IMG/VR virus record: IMGVR_UViG_3300037466_003648
Coordinates: 96,001-160,000 of that record
Length of the DNA stretch: 64,000 bases
Strand: one strand, 5' to 3'
From: a virus
Lineage: Duplodnaviria > Caudoviricetes
A program made the translations under genes and the position numbers. Under the pieces are notes generated by a model, which was given only the letters and a program-made list of their open reading frames with translations, searched no databases and was not told the origin of the DNA. The first letter of the stretch is position 1; every line of letters begins with the position of its first letter. Positions 8,241-54,264 of the stretch are shown piece after piece.

Positions 8241-10069
8241 GCAAGTTGGTTCTCACCGGTCCTGACGACCTGACTGCTCAGGGCTTCACCATCGTTGACG
8301 AGCCGACGCTGCTCGACACCGCGCTGTTCGACGAGCAGCACAAGCTGGTGACCCAGTGGGCAGGCGCGTTGCCGCGTCTCGACGGCAAGGCAGCACGTCC
8401 GTACCAGATCCGCTACGCGGCGATGGTCGCGTGCCGAACCCGTAACCTGCTCGCCCACGAGCAGGGCTTGGGCAAGACCTACGAGACGATCCTGGCAATC
8501 CTGGCACGCTACGGTCCTGCCCTGTTGGGTGGTCAGCGCAAGCTGCGTCGTGGGGCCATTCAGCTGGTCGTTCCGCGTCACACGATGGAGCTGGCGTGGC
8601 TCGCAGAGTTCAAGATGCTCCAGCTGGACGAGCACGTCGAGTTGATCCTGTCGGAGCGCGACGTGCGCATGAGCACCAAGCCCATCTGGTTGATCGACTA
8701 CGACTTCCTCAAGCGCCAAACGGACGCGGGCAGGAAGATGCGGCGCGCCGGTCGGCAACGCGTCCAGGTCAACCGCAAGAAGGAGGTCGAGCCCTTCTTC
8801 GTCGGCAAGCCGATGTGGAAGCTCATCCGCCAGACGGCTCGCCCGCACTTCGTTGCCTTCGATGAGATCCACATGCTGCGGTCGGACTCCGATCGCACCG
8901 AGGCAGTGGAGCAGTACGTCCGGGGTGTGAAGAACCGGTTGGGTCTGACCGGTACCCCGGTGGACGGTTGGATCGAGCACCTGGCGACCATCCTCCGCAT
9001 CATCTACGGTGAGAACAACGCCACGTTCCCCTGGACAGAGAAGACGTTCACCAAGCGTTTCACCCGCGAGCGGGTCATCGACCAGGACTACGTGACGGGC
9101 GAGGTGGGTGGTGCGACGCCGCGCAAGGTCAAGGCGCCGGGCATCAACCCCGACCAGATCCCCGAGTTCTACCGGGCGACCCGCCACCTGTTGCACCGCC
9201 TGATCATCCGCGACCCCGAGGTTGCCGGGCAGGTCACGTTCCCGAAGGTGAACTACCACCTGGAGGTGGTCGACCTCGACCCCGACCATCAAGAGTTCTA
9301 CATGGCGGCGCACGAAGCCATGATCGAAGCCATGACGCGCGAGCTGCAGAAGATCGAAGCCAACCAGACGAACTACGAGCGTCTCAAGGCCAACGTCTTG
9401 CAGCACATTACCCTGCTGCGCGAAGCGGCTTCGACGCCCTGGACGTTGAACAAGATGGGCATCACGCCCTTCCCGCACCGGATGACCAACAAGGTCATCA
9501 AAGCCATCGCGTTGGCGCACGAGGCGGCCGACCAGGGACGCAAGTCGATCATCTTCACGAACCAGATTCCGACGGGCTCCGTGCTGATGAAGCACGCCAA
9601 GGAAACCGGCTTGAAGGCGGTACGGGTGTTCGCGTCGGACCCCTTGGAGAAGCCCAACACGCTCGACCAGATCGCACGCAACCATCGCATCGAGCAGTTC
9701 CTGGTGGATCCCGATGTCAACCTGTTGGTCGGCAACCTGGGGTTGTTGGCGACCGGGTTGAGCCTCCAGACCGCCGCGTCGGTGGTCATCCACCACGACC
9801 ATGACTGGAAAGCCAACAAGTACCGGCAAGGCAACAGCCGCGTCATCCGCCCCAGCTACTGCTGGCCGGATGGTGTGGACGTCTACGACCTGGCGGGCGC
9901 GGGCACCGTCGACAACTACGTGCTGGCCGCCATGCTGCGCAAGGCCAAGGCCAACGACGAGATGATCGACCGCCGCTTCAGCTTGGAGATCCAGCTGACC
10001 CCCGAGGACGAGGTAGACGCCGTGGCCGTTGCACGCGCCCTGATCGCTGGAGACTCCGGTTTGTTGTAG
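8237..10069 (+). CDS. SNF2-family helicase/ATPase
   Basis: LLAHEQGLGKT (Walker A), FDEIH (Walker B), LGLTGTP, TGLSLQTA, QGNSRVIR. Confidence 0.85.
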   Translation: MSKLVLTGPDDLTAQGFTIVDEPTLLDTALFDEQHKLVTQWAGALPRLDGKAARPYQIRYAAMVACRTRNLLAHEQGLGKTYETILAILARYGPALLGGQRKLRRGAIQLVVPRHTMELAWLAEFKMLQLDEHVELILSERDVRMSTKPIWLIDYDFLKRQTDAGRKMRRAGRQRVQVNRKKEVEPFFVGKPMWKLIRQTARPHFVAFDEIHMLRSDSDRTEAVEQYVRGVKNRLGLTGTPVDGWIEHLATILRIIYGENNATFPWTEKTFTKRFTRERVIDQDYVTGEVGGATPRKVKAPGINPDQIPEFYRATRHLLHRLIIRDPEVAGQVTFPKVNYHLEVVDLDPDHQEFYMAAHEAMIEAMTRELQKIEANQTNYERLKANVLQHITLLREAASTPWTLNKMGITPFPHRMTNKVIKAIALAHEAADQGRKSIIFTNQIPTGSVLMKHAKETGLKAVRVFASDPLEKPNTLDQIARNHRIEQFLVDPDVNLLVGNLGLLATGLSLQTAASVVIHHDHDWKANKYRQGNSRVIRPSYCWPDGVDVYDLAGAGTVDNYVLAAMLRKAKANDEMIDRRFSLEIQLTPEDEVDAVAVARALIAGDSGLL

Positions 10070-10077
10070 GAGGTAAC

Positions 10078-10263
10078 GTGAAACAGGCAATCGCGATCGT
10101 CGACCGCATGGTCGAGGGTTACATCAAGAAGAACCAGGAAACACAGACCTACACGGATGCGCACGACAATGCGCTCCGCCAGGTGTTGTACGACCTGATG
10201 GACCGGGTGATGACGCTCGAAGCCTCGCTGGCTCCCGCGCTCTCGCCCACGATCAAGCACTAG
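10078..10263 (+). CDS. small hypothetical protein
   Basis: AGGAGG RBS and GTG start. Confidence 0.55.
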   Translation: MKQAIAIVDRMVEGYIKKNQETQTYTDAHDNALRQVLYDLMDRVMTLEASLAPALSPTIKH

Positions 10264-10271
10264 GAGCTACC

Positions 10272-10568
10272 ATGACCAAGCGCATCGAACTCTCCTGCCA
10301 ACCCGCCGCCTGTGTGCCAGGCAATCTCGTCTCGACCTTGATGGTCGTCGAGACCTTGGAGCACGGGTCGAAGGTCTGGCCGCAGAACCAGCGACCAGCA
10401 ACGGTGCAGGATCTCGAAGCGCTGGGTTACCTGGCTCCCGAAGCGGTCGAGAAGCTGCGCGCGGCAGGTGCGGCTCTGCTACGATGGATCTACGAGGGTG
10501 GTCTCGCCTACGACAACCCCGAGATCGAAGCTGCCCTCAAGGCATTTGCCGATAAACAGAAGGAGTAA
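10272..10568 (+). CDS. hypothetical protein
   Basis: AGGAG RBS; 98 aa. Confidence 0.55.
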   Translation: MTKRIELSCQPAACVPGNLVSTLMVVETLEHGSKVWPQNQRPATVQDLEALGYLAPEAVEKLRAAGAALLRWIYEGGLAYDNPEIEAALKAFADKQKE

Positions 10569-10571
10569 CCC

Positions 10572-10997
10572 GTGGACAAGATCACCGCCCCGTTCACCGA
10601 TGAGCAGGTGCGTGCGCTCAACGAGTACCAACACAGCGGCCTCTTCCACGAGTACACCTGTGGCAACGACAGCCGCCACCGCGTGTTGGTTGCGTCCACC
10701 GAGGGTTGGTCCTGCCCCGACTGCACCTACACGCAGAACTGGGCGCACGCCTCCATGGCCGTGCCGTTGACATCGGAGCAGAAGCGCCAGGCGCTCGCCA
10801 TGGGTGGACAGGTTTCCGTGCCGGACTTGGCAATCCGATACAACGACAACGGCACCCGCGACCTCGTCTCCGAAGAGTTGGGGTTGGAACTCAAGAACTT
10901 CAAAGTAGATTCGTTCAGTTTCGGTGCAACCACTGGTCGCCATGTTGTCGCCGAGTCCTGGCAAGGTGTCGCCCAACCCGATAAGGAGAACCCATGA
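10572..10997 (+). CDS. hypothetical protein with Zn-ribbon-like motif
   Basis: YTCG...WSCPDC motif; AAGGAG RBS. Confidence 0.6.
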   Translation: MDKITAPFTDEQVRALNEYQHSGLFHEYTCGNDSRHRVLVASTEGWSCPDCTYTQNWAHASMAVPLTSEQKRQALAMGGQVSVPDLAIRYNDNGTRDLVSEELGLELKNFKVDSFSFGATTGRHVVAESWQGVAQPDKENP

Positions 10998-11125
10998 TCC
11001 GCTTGATCGCATCCGTCATCGTACCCGCTACGATCGCAGCCTACCTGGTACCTCAACAACCAGGATCGTTGATCCTTTCTATCACGGGTACGGTCGTCAT
11101 GCTCGCCCTCTGGCCCAGCAAGTAG
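10994..11125 (+). CDS. small hydrophobic membrane peptide (43 aa, absent from the ORF track)
   Basis: AAGGAGAACCC-ATG; MIRLIASVIVPATIAAYLVPQQPGSLILSITGTVVMLALWPSK; fills the gap exactly. Confidence 0.6.
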   Translation: MIRLIASVIVPATIAAYLVPQQPGSLILSITGTVVMLALWPSK

Positions 11126-11136
11126 AAGGAGAACCC

Positions 11137-12393
11137 GTGACAACTCCTCCCATCCTGGGCGACGTGCCCACCATCTCGAAGTCCGACAAGGGCGAGCTGG
11201 CCGCCAAGACCACCACCCTCGCACTGGAGAACCGCCCCAAGAAGTGGTCCCAGTTGGTCGGCCAACCCATTCCGGTGACGGTGCTCACGAACTCGATCAA
11301 GCTGGGTGACATCAAGCCCGGCTACGTGTTCGACGGCATCACCGGCTGTGGCAAGTCGTCGGCTGCGTACCTGGTCGCCAAGCGCCTCAACTGCGATAAC
11401 CCGGACCTGGTAGCCCAGGATCCCTGTGGTGACTGCCGGTCGTGTCGTACCATCGACAAGGGCACCAGCCCCGATGTCAAGTTCGTCGATGGTGCCAGCG
11501 ATCGCAGCGTGGCCTTCGTGCGCGAAACGCTGAAGCCGTTCCTCTCGACCGCGCCGATGGGCAAGTACCGCGTCGCCATCATCGACGAGGCGCACCTGTA
11601 TGGCAAGGATGCGATCAGCGCCTTCCTCACCCTGCTGGAAAACATGCCGCGCTTCACCGGCAAGTCCGTGGTCATCCTGACCACCACGGAGAGCGAGAAG
11701 ATGGACCCGGCGGTGATGAACCGCTGCATGAACTTGCACTTCGCCTCCATCCCCAACGACATGTTGGCGGAGCAGATGGCCGCGTACACCGGCGAGGACG
11801 TCGCTGCATTGCGCATCCTGGCCGAGGAAGCAGGCAACTCCTTCCGTTCGATGTGGTCCTACATCGAGGTCTGGCAGCACCTGGGCGAGCCGCTGACCGA
11901 AGCCGTGGTCATGAAGCTGATCGGGGGCGTAAGCCTGGCCGAGCGGCACCGCTTGTGGGGCGACCTCACCAGCGGCAAGGTGGACAAGATCGGCGAGCGC
12001 TGGCGCGGTTGGCTCCAGGGTGGTGCGCGTGCGAGTGTCGTGGGCGCGCTGCTCCTGCGGGACCTGATTGGCGTTGCCGCGAAGTGTCCCGACCGCACGA
12101 CGTGGCACGATCCCATGCGCCTCCTGGCGGGTGCGCAGCAGCAAGGCTCAGATTCCGCCTGGCTGCCAGCGCTATACCTGATGGTGGGGCTGCCACTGGA
12201 CGTCCAAGTAAGCCACCGGCAGGAGCCAGCAGAAGGGCAGCCCCATCTTTCGCAACCCACCGTGCGCCACCCCGCCGGGCGGTTGTCCCCACCCGAAGGT
12301 ACACCAGCAGTGGCTGGGGTGGGACTCACCAGAACGAACAACACCGTTGAGATTGCTCCAGTTCACGACCGCCTGTTGTTCTTTGGTGCGTAA
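11137..12393 (+). CDS. dnaX: DNA polymerase III gamma/tau-like clamp loader ATPase
   Basis: RPKKWSQLVGQ, GITGCGKSS, PCGDCRSC, IIDEAH, NRC; start reassigned to GTG 11137 after AAGGAG. Confidence 0.88.
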   Translation: MTTPPILGDVPTISKSDKGELAAKTTTLALENRPKKWSQLVGQPIPVTVLTNSIKLGDIKPGYVFDGITGCGKSSAAYLVAKRLNCDNPDLVAQDPCGDCRSCRTIDKGTSPDVKFVDGASDRSVAFVRETLKPFLSTAPMGKYRVAIIDEAHLYGKDAISAFLTLLENMPRFTGKSVVILTTTESEKMDPAVMNRCMNLHFASIPNDMLAEQMAAYTGEDVAALRILAEEAGNSFRSMWSYIEVWQHLGEPLTEAVVMKLIGGVSLAERHRLWGDLTSGKVDKIGERWRGWLQGGARASVVGALLLRDLIGVAAKCPDRTTWHDPMRLLAGAQQQGSDSAWLPALYLMVGLPLDVQVSHRQEPAEGQPHLSQPTVRHPAGRLSPPEGTPAVAGVGLTRTNNTVEIAPVHDRLLFFGA

Positions 12394-12397
12394 GGGG

Positions 12398-12426
12398 TTG
12401 ACTTCGTACCTCGTATCGTGGAGAAT
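12398..12426 (+). promoter_or_regulatory. sigma70-like promoter inside an inverted repeat, upstream of the Hfq-like gene
   Basis: TTGACT-17 nt-GAGAAT; the spacer (12405-12415) is the reverse complement of 12448-12458. Confidence 0.55.
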
Positions 12427-12461
12427 GGGATCGCTCCCATCCTGAAGTACGAGGTACGTTC

Positions 12462-12719
12462 GTGGCAAGCCTTCAGACCCTGCTCACCGCCTGGATGACC
12501 AACGCCCAGGTGGTCACCCTCACCCTCCAGAACGGCCAGGCCGTGTCGGGCGTCGTGACGGACGACGGGGCTGCGGGTGACACGATCACCATCAAGCAGG
12601 GCAACGCGCGCACCAACGTCCCGAAGTCCGCGATCTGCACGCTGCCCGATCCCAGTGACATCACCCCGGCCGTCGGCACGCCGGGCCAGGGCACCAACAG
12701 CATTCGTCTCTTGCCCTAG
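12462..12719 (+). CDS. Hfq/Sm-like protein
   Basis: SLQ..L.A...V.L.L.NG...G.V...I.IK...V.K.AI.T aligns by eye with the Hfq Sm1/Sm2 motifs. Confidence 0.65.
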   Translation: MASLQTLLTAWMTNAQVVTLTLQNGQAVSGVVTDDGAAGDTITIKQGNARTNVPKSAICTLPDPSDITPAVGTPGQGTNSIRLLP

Positions 12720-12728
12720 TTCGCGGCG

Positions 12729-13085
12729 ATGGCTACCTACCGTCGCCGCAAGAAGCGTGAGGCTGACAGTCTCCCGCTTCCCTGGGGTCGCGATCCACTC
12801 AAGGGTCTGCTGGGAGACACACCGCGTGTCGAAGCTGTGGTGCCTACGCGTAAGCGCACGCGCTACTACTCGCCGCTCAAGGAGCGTGGTTGGTGTCCGC
12901 GGTGCGGTGCTCAGCGTTGGTCGGTGATCCTCGATGACACCCGTTACCGAGACATGTTCCTCGCGTGCGGGCAGTGCCACGAAACCTTCAGGATGGACAT
13001 GACGCCCCTCGACTTCCAGTACGCCTGGCGTGACGGCATCCCGATGCCCAAGGAAGTCAAGCTCAAGTACCATCGGAGGCACTAG
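12729..13085 (+). CDS. basic Zn-ribbon protein
   Basis: CPRCG...CGQC; Arg/Lys-rich termini. Confidence 0.6.
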   Translation: MATYRRRKKREADSLPLPWGRDPLKGLLGDTPRVEAVVPTRKRTRYYSPLKERGWCPRCGAQRWSVILDDTRYRDMFLACGQCHETFRMDMTPLDFQYAWRDGIPMPKEVKLKYHRRH

Positions 13086-13763
13086 GTGAAGTCGAACGCG
13101 TACGGCGATCCGTTTCCCAACGAGCAAATGACCATCGGTCTGATCGGCTCGCACTGCACGGGCAAGACCACGGCCGGGCAGTTGCTGTCCGCTTGGACGG
13201 GCTTCCCGCTGCTGGCCGAAGGAGTGCGCGACATCGTGCACCTGATGGGCTACCAGCAGATTGCCGACGTCCCCGACCAGGCACTCATGCAGTGGAACAT
13301 CATGCGCCACCAGATCAACCAGGAAGAGTCCATCGTGCGGCTCCAGGAAGTGCAGGGTGCACCGACGATTGCTTACATCACCGACCGTACGACGCTGGAC
13401 AACGCGGCGTACTTCCAGATGTACCAGTTCGGCAAGATCTCCCAGGCGGAGTTCGACGCCTACACGGGCAAGGCGTTCGACCACGCCCAGTTGGCCTACT
13501 CGCACTTCATTTACTTCCCCATCCTGTGGGACGAGATCGAAGACGACGGCTTCCGTGACACCGCACCCGGTCCGCGCCGCGAGATCGATGATATGATCCG
13601 TGGGCAGTTGACCGCGCTGAACCTTTGGGACCGCACTTTCACGGTCGGCGCGGGCTCGACCGCCCAGCGCTGCACCGCGATCATGGAGCACCTGAACCTC
13701 TGGCCGCGTATGCGCGAGCTGGCGCACACCCTCAAGCCTCACCGGGAGATCCCCACGTCATGA
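13086..13763 (+). CDS. P-loop nucleotide kinase, AAA_28/NadR-like (copy 2)
   Basis: GSHCTGKTT, DRTTLDNAAY, EDDGFR; clearly related to 2061-2696. Confidence 0.75.
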   Translation: MKSNAYGDPFPNEQMTIGLIGSHCTGKTTAGQLLSAWTGFPLLAEGVRDIVHLMGYQQIADVPDQALMQWNIMRHQINQEESIVRLQEVQGAPTIAYITDRTTLDNAAYFQMYQFGKISQAEFDAYTGKAFDHAQLAYSHFIYFPILWDEIEDDGFRDTAPGPRREIDDMIRGQLTALNLWDRTFTVGAGSTAQRCTAIMEHLNLWPRMRELAHTLKPHREIPTS

Positions 13764-14515
13764 TGAACCAGAACAACGACCAGCCCACGACGGAGACGGT
13801 CCGCCTCAACCAGCCCCTGGACCCCGGTGCTCCTGCCGAACCGGGGGACGACATGTTGGCCGACCTGCCCACCGCGGCGGAAGTGGGGCAGACAGGTCCC
13901 GTGCGCAACCCCAATGCGCCGCCCAGGAGCGACGAGATGACCGCGGGCTTGCCCCGTACCATCAATCCACAAGGCAACGGCCCGACCGTCGTGCCCGCCT
14001 ACGACATCGCGCCCAATGCGCCGGAGGTGGTGATCGGCTTCGGTCCCCCGGTCGCGCCCGAGCTGGCCGACATCGATCCGCCCCTCGTCGCGCCCGTGAC
14101 GAACGTGGGCGGCAAGTCCGACATGTTGCGCTCCGATGCGCTGGGTCCCATGAGCATGCAGAAGCAGTCGGAGAAGGAGCGCATGGCGCTCTTCCTGAAC
14201 GACCTGGTCGACGACCTCAAGCGTCTGGCCCACGGTCCCGTCAACCCGGTCAAGCGCATCATGGGTCGCCAGACCTTGGGCGCCGACCTGCTGCGCTTGT
14301 ACCAGGACCACGAGTACACCATCGATCACTGCATGACGATGGTGGAGATCGAGTCTGTCGGCCACCACACCACCCAGATCTCGCTCACGCTGCCCGCCAG
14401 CAAGATGACCAGCCGCATTCAGATGAAGCTGATCGCCTTGGGCTACAAGACGACGAAGACCGAGAACGGTCTGGTTCTGCGCTCTCCCGTGGAGGCCGCT
14501 GGTGCCGATTCGTAA
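13760..14515 (+). CDS. hypothetical protein with Pro-rich N-terminus
   Basis: ATGA-type overlap with the upstream gene; start reassigned to 13760. Confidence 0.6.
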   Translation: MMNQNNDQPTTETVRLNQPLDPGAPAEPGDDMLADLPTAAEVGQTGPVRNPNAPPRSDEMTAGLPRTINPQGNGPTVVPAYDIAPNAPEVVIGFGPPVAPELADIDPPLVAPVTNVGGKSDMLRSDALGPMSMQKQSEKERMALFLNDLVDDLKRLAHGPVNPVKRIMGRQTLGADLLRLYQDHEYTIDHCMTMVEIESVGHHTTQISLTLPASKMTSRIQMKLIALGYKTTKTENGLVLRSPVEAAGADS

Positions 14516-15257
14516 CGACCTCAACCTCGAAGGCGAGGGCTGGCGGAAGTACAAAGGCATCATCCACACCGGTACGCTGCGTCTCATCAACAAGCGCGGT
14601 ACGGGTGGTAGCGCGAACTACCCCGGCAACTTCAGCCCGGAGATTCCGCGCAACGAGATGTTGCGCTACTCCAAGACGGGTGACCTGATCGCAGACCTGT
14701 TCGCGGGTTCCGAGACGACCTTCCACGTCTGTCGCGAGCTGGGCCGCATCTACTGCGGCTGCGACTTGCGCCCGCACAGCGATGCCACCGATCTGGGTGA
14801 CGCTCGCACCTGGGACCCCGGCTGCGAAGTCCAGATGGTCTTCCTGCATCCACCCTACGCGGACATCATCGACTACAACGAGAAGCTGGGCGCGCAGCCT
14901 GGTGACCTCTCGCTCCCGTGGCAGCAGTTCCTGGTGGAGTTCGAAGCGGTTGCCGTCAACGCCGCCCGCATGCTTGCCCCCGGCGGCTTTGCGGTACTCG
15001 TCATCGGTGACCTGTACACCAACAGCGAACATGTGATGCTGGCCTTCTACACCGCCGAGTTGCTGCGCAAGGCGGGTCTCCGGCTTAAGCATGACACCAT
15101 CAAGAACTTCGGCGACGAGGTAGCGAACAAGAACAAGAACGAGAACTTGTGGTACCTTCGGTCTCTCAAAGGCGGCTTCGGCGTCCTGGAGCACGAGCAT
15201 ATCTTCGTGTTCGAGAAGCCCGCAGTATCCAAGAGAAAAGCGAAGCAGCCGTCTTGA
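14502..15257 (+). CDS. N6-adenine/N4-cytosine DNA methyltransferase
   Basis: DLFAGSET (motif I) and FLHPPY (motif IV); ends with HEHIFVFEK. Confidence 0.82.
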   Translation: MPIRNDLNLEGEGWRKYKGIIHTGTLRLINKRGTGGSANYPGNFSPEIPRNEMLRYSKTGDLIADLFAGSETTFHVCRELGRIYCGCDLRPHSDATDLGDARTWDPGCEVQMVFLHPPYADIIDYNEKLGAQPGDLSLPWQQFLVEFEAVAVNAARMLAPGGFAVLVIGDLYTNSEHVMLAFYTAELLRKAGLRLKHDTIKNFGDEVANKNKNENLWYLRSLKGGFGVLEHEHIFVFEKPAVSKRKAKQPS

Positions 15258-15280
15258 CCGGATGATCCGGTTGGGTTGGT
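15257..15280 (+). terminator. possible weak terminator hairpin
   Basis: ACCGGA-TGA-TCCGGT followed by a T/G-rich run. Confidence 0.3.
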
Positions 15281-15304
15281 TGCTCTAGGTTGAAGGAGAT
15301 CCCC

Positions 15305-15505
15305 ATGGACATCAACAGTACCATTCGTCCCATCAACACGATCGTGCACCGGACGGGCAGCCACATCACCGCCTCCGACGTCAGCTCGTGGGAGCGCGCG
15401 GGCGGCCGTCACGGTATCTGCGCGCATTGCAAGGGCTGGCGGCGCTTGGGGCTCGACACCTGCTACATCAAGGAGGGTGTCGAGCTGAAGGTCTGCTACG
15501 CATGA
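15305..15505 (+). CDS. small hypothetical protein (CxxC)
   Basis: AAGGAG RBS before ATG 15305; CAHC motif. Confidence 0.55.
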   Translation: MDINSTIRPINTIVHRTGSHITASDVSSWERAGGRHGICAHCKGWRRLGLDTCYIKEGVELKVCYA

Positions 15506-35989: not shown

Positions 35990-35995
35990 AGCACC

Positions 35996-36078
35996 AGCCT
36001 GAGCTTCGGTTCCGTGTCCCAAACATTCCCGAAGCCTTCGCACGAAGCCCCTGCCCGCACAGGGGCTTCGTGCTGTTG
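35996..36078 (+). ncRNA. candidate ~80-nt small RNA
   Basis: No ORF; hairpin GCTTCGG/CCGAAGC with a 19-nt loop, then a 14-bp hairpin at 36040-36073. Ends are inferred. Confidence 0.5.
36040..36078 (+). terminator. 14-bp hairpin, possible terminator with a weak U-tract
   Basis: GCACGAAGCCCCTG/CAGGGGCTTCGTGC followed by TGTT. Confidence 0.5.
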
Positions 36079-36104
36079 ACACATGGATCGATCCATGGTA
36101 ACTT
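36076..36104 (+). promoter_or_regulatory. promoter B with a perfectly palindromic spacer
   Basis: TTGACA-17 nt-TAACTT with extended TG; the spacer contains the 16-bp palindrome CATGGATCGATCCATG. Confidence 0.7.
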
Positions 36105-36110
36105 ACATAC

Positions 36111-36397
36111 ATCAGGCTCTGTCGGAGTGCGGGACACGGAAGACAACCTGCTGGGAGCGAAGGGGCCGCTAGACGCCTGACGCCCTCGAAGGAAGAACCC
36201 GCGGAGTTCTTCACCGTTGTCCCTACCCTCCAATCGTACCCACGGGTCGAGCGGAGTTCCCGAAGGCTGGCCTTGACGGCCTGTACGACTGGAACGTGGG
36301 GGTAGGGGGACACGGTTACTTCGAGGGAGACTCAGCTAACCACTTCCGCCTGACGGGCGGGCGCGCGAGACGAGCCACACGGCTCGTCTTTTTGTTT
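36111..36397 (+). ncRNA. candidate ~285-nt highly structured RNA or attenuator leader
   Basis: No credible ORF; nested helices CCCTCGAAG/CTTCGAGGG, GAAGAAC/GTTCTTC, ACCGTTGTCCCTACCC/GGGTAGGGGGACACGGT, TCGTAC/GTACGA. Confidence 0.6.
36367..36397 (+). terminator. intrinsic terminator
   Basis: AGACGAGCC-ACAC-GGCTCGTCT followed by TTTTGTTT. Confidence 0.85.
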
Positions 36398-36425
36398 GGG
36401 ACCGCGGGTCCTGGGAGGAGATCCG

Positions 36426-48625: not shown

Positions 48626-50605
48626 TTACCAGTCGGCTTGGGTCACCGACGTCTTCCGCCCCATGGTCCGAATCGTCGCCCCTGCATTTCTGGGCGCGTT
48701 GTTGATCAACCGTTGATTGCTGCGTGCGGCCATGGCACGACCCTCATCGAAGATGTCGGAGATGACGCCCGCCGCACGCACCTTGCCGACCGTGCGCATC
48801 TTGTCCGAACCCACTTCGAAGCTGCGGTACTTGCGCTCGTCCTGGGCGATCTTGTAGATGACGCAGGCCAGGCAGTCGGACAAGTCCTTCGAGCCGCGGG
48901 GCTTCGGGTGATCGATGCGACGACCGTTCATCAGCTTCAGCTCGATCAACTCCTTGTGCAGCTGGGCAGCGGCGGGCGACACGCTCGGGTCCGGTAGCTG
49001 GATGCGCTCGGCGTAGAGCCAGTCGCGCAAGGTCAGGTAAATGTCGCGCTGGACCTGCTGACTAAAGCTCGACTTCCACTCGCGGGTATTCACGCCCTTC
49101 GAGTACAGGCGTTGGATGATCATGGCACTCTGCCAGTGGTCGAAGGTCATGTCCCGCAGGGTGATGTAGGGAGCCAGCTCCAGGATGATCTCTTCCACGT
49201 TCATGAAGTCCGTGGGGTAGATGTTCTTGCGGCCCTTGTCGAGCGGCTGCCACTTCAGGATGGTGTGCACGTCCGCGTGCACCAACCCCGTGGCTGCGTC
49301 GTAGAAAGGCGAGGCGGCCACGAAACCGAAGCTGTCCTTCTTCAGACCGGGGTCTCCGTGCGCGTAGCTTTGGAAGCCGATCGGAACGCTGATCGCATCG
49401 CGGTCGACGTGGATCTTAATGCCTGCCTTGATCTGCACGCCATCGGGTCCGACCACCTGCGTCTCGATGGCCTCGTAGCCGACCGGCAGACTCATGCGCG
49501 TCGTGACCTTCTGGACCAGCGGCTTCTGGAAGTAGGACTCCTCCGAACCGGGGCGGACGCCTGCGTAGTCGCGCTGCGCCTCGATGCCGCGTGCAGCGAA
49601 CTCTTTGCGCATGAAGGGGTGCTCTTCGCCCAGCTTCGCGAACTCCGGGTTGATGTCCCAGGTGCAGAGGCGGAACGCCAGGATGTTGGCGCCCTCCTCG
49701 GTCTCTGCCATCTCGTACATCGTGTCCGTGATGTCGCCTTCCGCCCAGGCGGAGGAGATGACGATGCGCTTGGAGCCGAACTTCTGGAGGGTGGTGACAC
49801 CCTTGCCGACGTTGGCGTACATCTCCGCGCCCGACGCACCGCCTTGGGCTTCGACACCAAAGCGGTTGCCCTCGTCCATCGCGAAGATCATCAGGGTACG
49901 GCCGACCAGACCCTCGGAACGGCTGTGACCGGCCCAGAGCAGGAGGTTCTTGCTTTCGCAGTAGATCTCCAGCGCGTTGACCTGGATGACGCCGGTGGCC
50001 ATGAGACCCTGGAAGTAGGGGCTGTGCTCGATACGACCCTTGACGGCGGCGAACAGCGTGTCCTTGGACTGCTTCTCGGAGGTTGCCAACACGAGGAAGG
50101 CAATCAGGGATCCCGCCATCAAACCGAACGACGCGGCAGGGTCCTTGAGCTGCAGGAGCTTGTAGAACTCGAAGGTCACCATGATGGAGGTCAGCGAGGT
50201 CTTGGAGCCGCGCATCCCGCACTCCAAACACAGCTCTTGGTACTCCTGGCCTTCGACCCAGGTGGTCTTGTTGTCCAGTGACCACTGCTGGAGGATCTCG
50301 CGCTCGTCCCACGGATCGTCCGGGTGCATGTCGTAACGGGAGCACCAGCTGAAGATCTCTTCCTCGCGCTCGGCGCTCGTCCGGCCCGTGAGGTTGATGC
50401 ACAGGTCGCGCCAGAGCCCCTTCTCCAGCGGCAGGTTGTACAGCGCCTTGAGGATGGCACGCTGGGTCGGCCACAGACGGACGCCCAGGATCTCTGTAGC
50501 GAACTGGACAACGTCCATCGTTGTCTGGTCCTGCTGCATACCTTCTGCCACGATCTCGTGGATGAAGCTCTGTGCCTTGAGCAGTGGCTTGTTGATCTTA
50601 CTCAT
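48626..50605 (-). CDS. terL: terminase large subunit
   Basis: LWPTQRAIL, GMRGSKT (Walker A), AMDEG (Walker B), HGDPGLKKDSFG and KDLSD nuclease motifs. Confidence 0.88.
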   Translation of the reverse strand: MSKINKPLLKAQSFIHEIVAEGMQQDQTTMDVVQFATEILGVRLWPTQRAILKALYNLPLEKGLWRDLCINLTGRTSAEREEEIFSWCSRYDMHPDDPWDEREILQQWSLDNKTTWVEGQEYQELCLECGMRGSKTSLTSIMVTFEFYKLLQLKDPAASFGLMAGSLIAFLVLATSEKQSKDTLFAAVKGRIEHSPYFQGLMATGVIQVNALEIYCESKNLLLWAGHSRSEGLVGRTLMIFAMDEGNRFGVEAQGGASGAEMYANVGKGVTTLQKFGSKRIVISSAWAEGDITDTMYEMAETEEGANILAFRLCTWDINPEFAKLGEEHPFMRKEFAARGIEAQRDYAGVRPGSEESYFQKPLVQKVTTRMSLPVGYEAIETQVVGPDGVQIKAGIKIHVDRDAISVPIGFQSYAHGDPGLKKDSFGFVAASPFYDAATGLVHADVHTILKWQPLDKGRKNIYPTDFMNVEEIILELAPYITLRDMTFDHWQSAMIIQRLYSKGVNTREWKSSFSQQVQRDIYLTLRDWLYAERIQLPDPSVSPAAAQLHKELIELKLMNGRRIDHPKPRGSKDLSDCLACVIYKIAQDERKYRSFEVGSDKMRTVGKVRAAGVISDIFDEGRAMAARSNQRLINNAPRNAGATIRTMGRKTSVTQADW

Positions 50606-53793: not shown

Positions 53794-53802
53794 GGGCGTC
53801 TC

Positions 53803-54264
53803 CTACTTCGTGCGGCTTACCGCGGGCGGATCGGCCGGGGGTGCTGCCTTCTGCGGCGACCAGTTCATGATGAGCGTGAGGGTCAACCCCAGTGCCGACA
53901 ACCCAACGGTGATCAGGGTCACGTAGGTCGCCGTCGTGTTGGAGTGCATGCTCTTCAGCAGCTCCAGGTGGTTGTGGTTGGTCTCGGCAATGGCCTCTTG
54001 AGCGGCATTCACCGCGGTTCCCAGCAGCGCCATCTGCTGCTGGGTCGCATCCAGACGAGCTTGGATCTCGTGCCGCGGCACGAAGCTCTGAGGCAGTGCC
54101 TTCAACTCGTTCAAGGTCGCACGAATCTCGTCGAGCTTCGAGTTCAACACGGCCAGTTGCTGGTTGTTCTGACTGGTCTGCGAGGCCGTTTCTGCCAGGC
54201 GCTTGTCCAGCTCCTGCAGCTTCTGCTCCAGCAAACCAATTCGCTGCTCCAACACTTCGGACAT
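53803..54264 (-). CDS. coiled-coil protein with C-terminal TM segment (lysis- or holin-associated candidate)
   Basis: Heptad repeats followed by YVTLITVGLSALGLTLTLIM. Confidence 0.55.
   Translation of the reverse strand: MSEVLEQRIGLLEQKLQELDKRLAETASQTSQNNQQLAVLNSKLDEIRATLNELKALPQSFVPRHEIQARLDATQQQMALLGTAVNAAQEAIAETNHNHLELLKSMHSNTTATYVTLITVGLSALGLTLTLIMNWSPQKAAPPADPPAVSRTK

Follow-up and report, generated by a model that had tools for sequence, protein, structure and literature searches.

What is the small protein encoded directly behind the clamp-loader gene of an uncultured soil jumbo phage? We asked this question for the open reading frame (ORF) at 12462-12719 on the plus strand of a window of 64,000 nucleotides, which corresponds to positions 96001-160000 of the IMG/VR record IMGVR_UViG_3300037466_003648 (G000 below), a phage record of 205,180 bp that carries direct repeats at its termini. 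The ORF, read from the sequence, encodes 85 amino acids from a GTG start, and an initial annotation made by eye had described the product as an Hfq/Sm-like protein with altered RNA-binding residues. Fold searches, profile-profile comparison and residue mapping all agree with that description. We believe that the product very probably belongs, though much diverged, to the true Hfq branch of Sm proteins, nearest to the cyanobacterial "Hfq-related" type. As to its role we favor, at a probability of roughly 0.4, a ring that partners a neighboring zinc-ribbon protein when the phage replicates or runs its early-middle programme.

The ORF is a real gene. Its codon-position GC (0.59/0.52/0.90) is typical for coding frames in this 63% GC window, and the third-position value of 0.90 matches that of the neighboring genes, all of which lie on the plus strand. 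A word-based protein search recovered only the query. An exhaustive phmmer search of 1.8 billion representatives returned eight small relatives (64-101 amino acids) and four long proteins, and a profile search then enlarged the family to 16 clusters plus the query, for a total of 17, with 36-61% identity and the same range of lengths. These 17 occur only on phage-like contigs; none has been named, and none carries a Pfam domain. Because this level of identity is held across contigs that span 44-63% GC, the plus frame is under selection at the protein level. We rejected a mirror ORF on the minus strand (12473-12703), since it is the plus frame that the relatives conserve at the protein level.

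The template-free AlphaFold2 (AF2) model of the target (mean predicted local distance difference test, pLDDT, 75.8) consists of an N-terminal helix followed by five strands in Sm topology, so that both hallmarks of the Sm fold, the helix and the bent five-stranded sheet, are present in the predicted structure. In a Foldseek search of the PDB almost all of the top 50 matches were Hfq, with a root-mean-square deviation (rmsd) of 1.1-1.4 A over 54-58 columns. VIA-align ranked seven Hfq structures first (Z 9.2-9.8), the Synechocystis Hfq 3HFO among its matches at Z 9.5, and placed archaeal and eukaryotic Sm proteins below them; taken over both programs, the top Hfq matches range from 1.1 to 2.5 A.

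At the sequence level the target itself matched nothing in Pfam even at an E-value of 10, nor did the genome search give a match for it. Within the family, the Pfam model Hfq (PF17209) was matched by seven of the 17 members (best E 0.012), Hfq_1 (PF21979) by three (best E 0.00098) and the NCBIfam model Hfq_rel_Cyano (NF047718) by three, there with the best E-value, 0.0018, and tied with one unrelated model; the best member against TIGR02383 reached E 0.018. The search against Hfq profiles that the initial annotation had proposed thus gave concordant matches in some members, but all fell below the curated cut-offs, and no member passes the curated thresholds for Hfq (PF17209, TIGR02383). A second weak Hfq_1 match in G000 (53799-53846) lies inside a 498-residue protein and is spurious. 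When the family profile was compared with PDB sequences, the best match was the Anabaena Hfq 3HFN (E 0.04), followed by the Hfq proteins of S. aureus and Aquifex.

Profile-profile comparison with hhalign, for which the references were 30 Hfq cores from Bacillota genomes and 17 cyanobacterial Hfq sequences, placed the family closest to the latter. The match to cyanobacterial Hfq extended over 58 columns with an hhalign probability of 80.7% (E 1.3e-5, score 32.2), and that to Bacillota Hfq had a value of 27% (P 6.7e-4, score 23.6). The two references matched one another at 52.7% (1.4e-4, score 25.7), which is weaker than the match between the family and cyanobacterial Hfq. Reversed or column-shuffled controls stayed at or below 6.4% and a score of 19.2; among the 30 column-shuffled controls, the maximum score was 19.2 against cyanobacterial and 16.1 against Bacillota Hfq. 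The resemblance to Hfq thus exceeds what chance gives.

These comparisons indicate that the family is a relative, and not a member, of the cyanobacterial Hfq-related type (PF21979, NF047718; 3HFN, 3HFO), which supplied the best profile-profile match and the best PDB sequence match and has the same fold. The two have in common an I-x-K-x-A-I-A-Y-L segment spanning beta4 and beta5, both are non-basic, and both lack the canonical proximal pocket. Unlike cyanobacterial Hfq, the family has its own helix motif, A-x-L-Q-T-x-L-T, and a T-D-D-G motif in an extended L3 loop; the N-terminal FDxxLPS and the WQD loop of the cyanobacterial proteins are missing from it, and it is encoded by phages within a replication module rather than beside host genes.

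The relation to canonical Hfq (PF17209, TIGR02383; 6GWK, 1KQ1, 1HK9) is one of a shared Sm fold and a much altered surface. HMMER and hhalign reproduced the alignment that had been made by eye, in which L4-Q5 falls on L7-Q8 of Hfq, LQNGQAVSG on LVNGxxxxG and VPKSAICT on VYKHAIST. The family has accordingly kept L7-Q8, the beta2 glycine, the L3 aspartate and K56-x-A58-I59 (K55-x-A57-I58 in the target). In Hfq the proximal pore is framed by two polar residues, Q8 and K56; their equivalents here, Q5 and K55, are both invariant in the family. The Sm2 motif [YF]-K-H-[AS]-[IV] and the full proximal uridine pocket (Q8, F/Y42, K56, H57) are absent: the proximal aromatic F/Y42 is lost, Y55 has become proline and H57 serine or alanine, so that the region reads P-K-S-A-I in the target and I-P-K-A-A-I in the family consensus. 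The change from YKH to PKS noted in the initial annotation is therefore genuine, as is the lack of proximal and distal aromatic residues; the target contains no Phe, Tyr or His, and its single Trp is W11. The basic rim (R16, R17, R19) and the distal aromatic Y25 align with M12, T13 and Q16 and with L22, respectively, and most family members carry one Lys at the R16 position.

What the family conserves in place of these residues clusters on one side of the predicted ring. In the 17-row alignment A2, L4, Q5, L8, T9, T33, D34 and K55 are invariant, and G30, D35, G36, D40 and I58 are nearly so. The loop between beta2 and beta3 is about four residues longer than in Hfq and carries the acidic T-D-D-G motif (positions 33-36). 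In Sm rings the start of the helix and loops L3 and L5 line the proximal side of the pore (PMC3710371), and Q5, T33, D34, D35, G36, D40 and K55 map to just these elements; the proximal pore side is therefore a conserved cluster whose chemistry is now acidic and polar. Counted over the Sm core, the net charge per subunit has a median of -2 in the family, whereas Bacillota Hfq stands at +3 and cyanobacterial Hfq at 0.

The second conserved feature is the place of the gene. A clamp-loader gene (Pfam DNA_pol3_delta2, 4e-24; PHROG 5846 "clamp loader", 1.4e-33) lies directly upstream of the Hfq-like gene and precedes the family member in ten of 11 contexts. Downstream follows a gene for a small zinc-ribbon protein, a homologue of which lies 2-16 nt downstream of, or overlaps, the family member in all seven clamp-loader-linked loci with readable downstream DNA, again across 44-63% GC. 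The zinc-ribbon family is likewise unnamed; its invariants are YRD, PLD and YAWRDGIxMP, its N-terminal part is basic, and the isoelectric point (pI) is 8.8-10 in four of five members. It bears weak similarity to the RNA-polymerase-associated Elf1 and RPB9/TFS zinc ribbons, and its AF2 model is poor (pLDDT 62). The features of the locus are collected in Table 1.

Table 1. Features of the Hfq-like locus; positions refer to the window, or to the named contig for the zinc-ribbon homologues
Feature	Position	Strand	Remarks
Clamp-loader gene (DNA pol III gamma/tau/delta'-type AAA+)	11134..12393	+	start approximate; longest ORF from 10924
Sigma-70-type promoter-like element TTGACT-17 nt-GAGAAT	12398..12426	+	directly after clamp-loader stop; putative function
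Hairpin, 3' arm over ribosome-binding site	12404..12458	+	arms 12405-12415/12448-12458, 11 bp; inner hairpin 12422-12443
Shine-Dalgarno GAGG	12452..12455	+	6 nt spacer (12456-12461) to GTG; read directly
Hfq-like gene	12462..12719	+
Sm/Hfq-like core, residues 1-62	12462..12647	+	helix 4-14; strands 17-22, 27-34, 41-46, 49-54, 58-60
Low-confidence C-terminal tail, residues 63-85 and stop	12648..12719	+	ends IRLLP
Zinc-ribbon gene, 118 amino acids, pI 10.0	12729..13085	+	CxxC...CxxC, YAWRDGIxMP; begins 9 nt past Hfq-like stop
Large terminase subunit	48626-50605	-	31% identity; closest Microcystis Ma-LMM01/MaMV group 8e-77, Microcoleus phage My-WqHQDG 1e-61
Zinc-ribbon homologue, contig L002	4439-4834
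Zinc-ribbon homologue, contig L005	6195-6422
Zinc-ribbon homologue, contig L042	4205-4687
Zinc-ribbon homologue, contig L043	4224-4673
Zinc-ribbon homologue, contig L052	3230-3598
Zinc-ribbon homologue, contig L053	2145-2669

We propose that the protein probably acts with a partner protein rather than as a classical small-RNA chaperone, because its nearest kin works through protein partners, because T4 uses Hfq structurally, and because the coupling to a basic zinc ribbon recurs. Cyanobacterial Hfq is reported to interact with the C-terminus of PilB and with EbsA and to have a role in type IV pilus assembly, and the same work judges it "unlikely to bind RNA" (PMC12288463); in T4 the gp13/gp14 neck complex includes host Hfq as a structural component, or gate (PMC12929587). 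In our model the Hfq-like protein would assemble into an Sm-type ring, and the conserved acidic side of its proximal pore would dock a partner in place of U-rich RNA. The most likely partner would be the product of the next gene downstream, the strongly basic zinc-ribbon protein. The two would be active during replication or in the early-middle programme, with the ring serving to multimerise a nucleic-acid-binding zinc-ribbon protein. Sm subunits contact each other through their beta4 and beta5 strands (PMC3710371), and these edge strands are present and conserved in the family; a complex prediction with four copies of the core and the family alignment scored 0.30 against a mark of 0.42 and gave no answer.

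A more specific form of this model, which we regard as unlikely, is that the acidic ring and the basic zinc ribbon would together make a two-protein accessory of the phage replisome, positioned through the clamp loader and the sliding clamp. Such an accessory might deal with single-stranded nucleic acid at the fork, or it might link replication with transcription by the phage's own RNA polymerase, as the sliding clamp of T4 does together with gp33 and gp55. If this form of the model is true, the Hfq fold would serve DNA replication here, a role so far undescribed. The flexible tail with a hydrophobic RLL tip, found in three members including the target, could serve as a docking peptide.

A number of points weigh against the ring-and-zinc-ribbon proposal. 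Ring formation, the identity of the partner and the ligand are all inferred. Since no curated Hfq model is matched at its cut-off, the homology itself rests on concordant sub-threshold signals and a predicted fold. Q5 and K55 equal the uridine- and phosphate-contacting residues of Hfq, which leaves room for a modified RNA site. With a pI of 6.4, one of the zinc-ribbon homologues is not basic. Synteny among these phages extends over the entire replication module, and adjacency may therefore mean shared descent instead of partnership. Finally, the family member on contig L044 (4001-4207), which belongs to the P0012 subgroup, has neither a clamp-loader nor a zinc-ribbon neighbor, so the protein can function without both.

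Next in standing, though unlikely in our judgment, is that the ring binds RNA through a modified proximal site, and either aids the phage's pair of a small and a long RNA at 35996-36397 or acts on the mRNAs of replication genes by controlling how stable they are or how they are translated, in the manner of T4 RegA or of a GoF mutant. Sm folds most often bind RNA, the invariance of Q5 and K55 suits this idea, and so does the position of the gene: in T4 the gene for the translational repressor RegA sits right after the clamp-loader genes 44/62. RegA has a different fold and proven RNA binding, and the analogy is positional only. Loop-loop (kissing) RNA pairs, moreover, usually need no chaperone. 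In the initial annotation the protein had been offered as a chaperone for the RNA pair at 35996-36397, and for this we found no support; a classical chaperone is disfavored because most of the proximal-pocket residues (Tyr55 and His57 among them), the distal aromatic and the rim arginines have been lost and the core is acidic. A BLAST search with 35990-36400 gave no match in the relative G001, a genome that is only 35% complete. The T4 LSm-like variant GoF(D25Y) stabilises the mRNA of gene 41 (PMC12152347), but our family lacks the aromatic stacking residues and the rim arginines, and its nearest kin is the cyanobacterial protein, for which RNA binding has been called unlikely (PMC12288463).

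It is less probable still that the protein mimics host Hfq, either as a decoy that poisons host rings, as the initial annotation had also suggested, or as a competitor for PilB and EbsA that alters type IV pili, competence or superinfection. The nearest profile is indeed that of cyanobacterial Hfq, and the likeness is strongest in the beta4-L5-beta5 segment (VIPKAAIAYL against TIWKQAIAYL), which includes the strands of the subunit interface. The kinship of the terminase to Microcystis and Microcoleus phages (Table 1) and the enrichment of HIP1 described below also speak for it. A cyanobacterial host is, however, itself plausible but unproven, and the target (NVPKSAICTLP) ranks with the least similar members when that very segment is compared with cyanobacterial Hfq. 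The TDDG loop of the family has no counterpart in cyanobacterial Hfq, the gene lies within a replication module and not among host-takeover genes, and the closest cyanophages in culture lack the family.

We think it improbable that the protein is no relative of Hfq at all, but a generic small beta-barrel (SH3/Sm-like, for example of the YaeO/Rof-like, WYL-like or spore-coat type) that resembles it by convergence. Such a reading would account for the failure of every sequence match to Hfq models to reach its curated cut-off. Barrels other than Hfq, among them designed SH3-like barrels, GerQ and YaeO, also reached Z 7-9, and best Z values of 7-8 are common among models without clear kin. However, HMMER against the PDB, Pfam and NCBIfam, hhalign with its shuffled controls, Foldseek and VIA-align all converge on Hfq, and the methods set the LQ of the helix motif and the Sm2-like xKxAI in register with it. 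That the protein is a virion accessory, a phage-encoded stand-in for host Hfq as second gate under a T4-type neck (PMC12929587), is very improbable: the top fold matches do include PDB 9LU5, but the gene lies in a replication block behind a sigma-70-like promoter, with the terminase and head-tail genes about 36 kb away on the opposite strand, the basic distal and rim residues contacted in T4 (K31, R19) are absent here, and such use of Hfq is reported to be peculiar to the T4 lineage (PMC12929587).

The region ahead of the gene carries conserved signals of its own. The promoter-like element listed in Table 1 was the sole plus-strand match within 10000-15500 in a consensus scan, and the box is conserved at the same position in eight of nine related loci. 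In the relatives L002, L005, L043, L052, L053 and L054 it consists of TTGAC[AT], 17 nt and a hexamer with A2 and T6; L042 has the variant TTGACG. The Hfq-like gene would thus be driven from its own conserved sigma-70-like promoter. On contig L054 the box TTGACT-17-GAGAAT abuts the annotated start codon of the 101-residue P0002 (2730-3035), and the start typical of the family (V-A-T-L-Q) lies 13 codons further downstream; the annotated P0002 probably starts too early.

A hairpin that overlaps both the promoter-like element and the ribosome-binding site may add a further layer of control. Its two arms are 100% complementary in a repeat search, and the predicted RNA fold has a free energy of -37.8 kcal/mol (z -3.1), which was equalled by none of 200 shuffles. 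The 5' arm falls within the promoter spacer. As the stem pairs this spacer with the ribosome-binding site (RBS), RNA that reads through from the clamp-loader gene would hide the RBS, and RNA from the gene's own promoter, predicted to be unmasked, would not. If so, only own-promoter transcripts of the Hfq-like gene would be translated. Among the public runs listed there was no RNA run carrying the phage.

The C-terminal tail of the target is modelled with low confidence (block-mean pLDDT 47-67 over residues 61-85, and below 50 for residues 72-79). Its pattern PDPxxIT...(I/Y/L)RLL (12648-12716) occurs only in the target, P0020 and P0002, and the other members end just past beta5; the RLL-type tail may be a short docking motif, judging from its sequence. 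The subgroup of P0012, P0017 and P0018 ends in KRKLLT. In four further soil runs the contigs agree fully over the Hfq-like gene and hence provide no variation on which to test selection. In soil run X5 one contig is without one base at 12681, which would shift the frame of the tail only and could be an assembly error.

The wider neighborhood is that of a replication block. Upstream of the Hfq-like gene are a SNF2-type helicase gene and the clamp-loader gene; downstream, the zinc-ribbon gene is followed by an AAA_28 gene and a DNA methylase gene and, further on, by genes for an exonuclease, helicases and a primase. PADLOC returned nothing meaningful. The clamp-loader proteins of these phages end in a conserved hydrophobic L(L)FFG(A/G) ahead of the promoter box (12370-12393 in the window; about 4100-4114 on L002; 5935-5949 on L005). 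The 75-residue zinc-ribbon copy on L005 is absent from the JGI gene calls, and the neighbors on L044 are FGE-sulfatase-like and VWA/CobT-like genes.

Beyond the 17 clusters the searches added little. The phage record holds a single copy of the family, and an IMG/VR search seeded with a family sub-alignment returned only a 72-kb contig that was already known; related-locus searches of IMG/VR gave no match when the query was the protein alone or the clamp loader. Neither megablast nor tblastn against INPHARED phages matched the Hfq-like gene, and the family was not found in MaMV-DC or the Microcoleus phage My-WqHQDG. The nearest clusters in the ESM Atlas were unnamed hypothetical proteins at 0.90, which is uninformative, and BFVD gave merely weak matches to uncharacterised small phage barrels. 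The four long phmmer matches (P0003, P0006, P0010, P0013) proved to be InlB-repeat, Ig-repeat and other unrelated multi-stretch proteins and not fused forms, and a match on contig L007 lies within a 404-residue enzyme-like ORF of a Bacillota metagenome-assembled genome and is spurious.

Sm- or Hfq-like proteins of phages are already known as such. They include GoF, MotB.1 and Frd.2 of T4 (PMC12152347), a cyanophage-type Sm pentamer (Das 2009, as cited in PMC3710371) and the "Hfq-like" gp39 of mycobacteriophage Adephagia (PMC11373665). Like the protein described here these are small, with a predicted or solved Sm barrel and a function that is at most hinted at, GoF being linked to the mRNA of a replication gene (gene 41). 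None has a sequence relation to our family that phmmer, profile, PDB or INPHARED searches could detect, and none has been described as nearest to cyanobacterial Hfq or as paired with a zinc ribbon behind a clamp loader. What is new is an unnamed family nearest to cyanobacterial Hfq, with a remodelled acidic pore motif and a fixed place between clamp loader and zinc ribbon.

Hfq is a central RNA regulator of bacteria, and recent work on the pilus motor of cyanobacteria and on the neck of T4 shows the same ring put to a new, purely protein-binding use. If our proposal is true, a stripped-down acidic ring of Hfq type beside a clamp loader and a zinc ribbon would be a further reuse of the fold, and it would offer a small, tractable pair of proteins with which to ask what an Sm ring does without its RNA pockets.

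The phage occurs in soil and rhizosphere metagenomes, and a cyanobacterial host is plausible from its sequence features. After the cyanophages named in Table 1, the next group of terminase matches, from Streptomyces phages, reached 3e-22 or weaker. The cyanobacterial word HIP1 (GCGATCGC) is present in 32 copies in G000 against about 6.8 expected. Together with the nearest Hfq type, this terminase kinship and HIP1 enrichment support a link between an uncultured soil jumbo phage and cyanobacteria. Twenty of the HIP1 copies lie near the ends of the record, in its first 10 kb and its last 1.2 kb.

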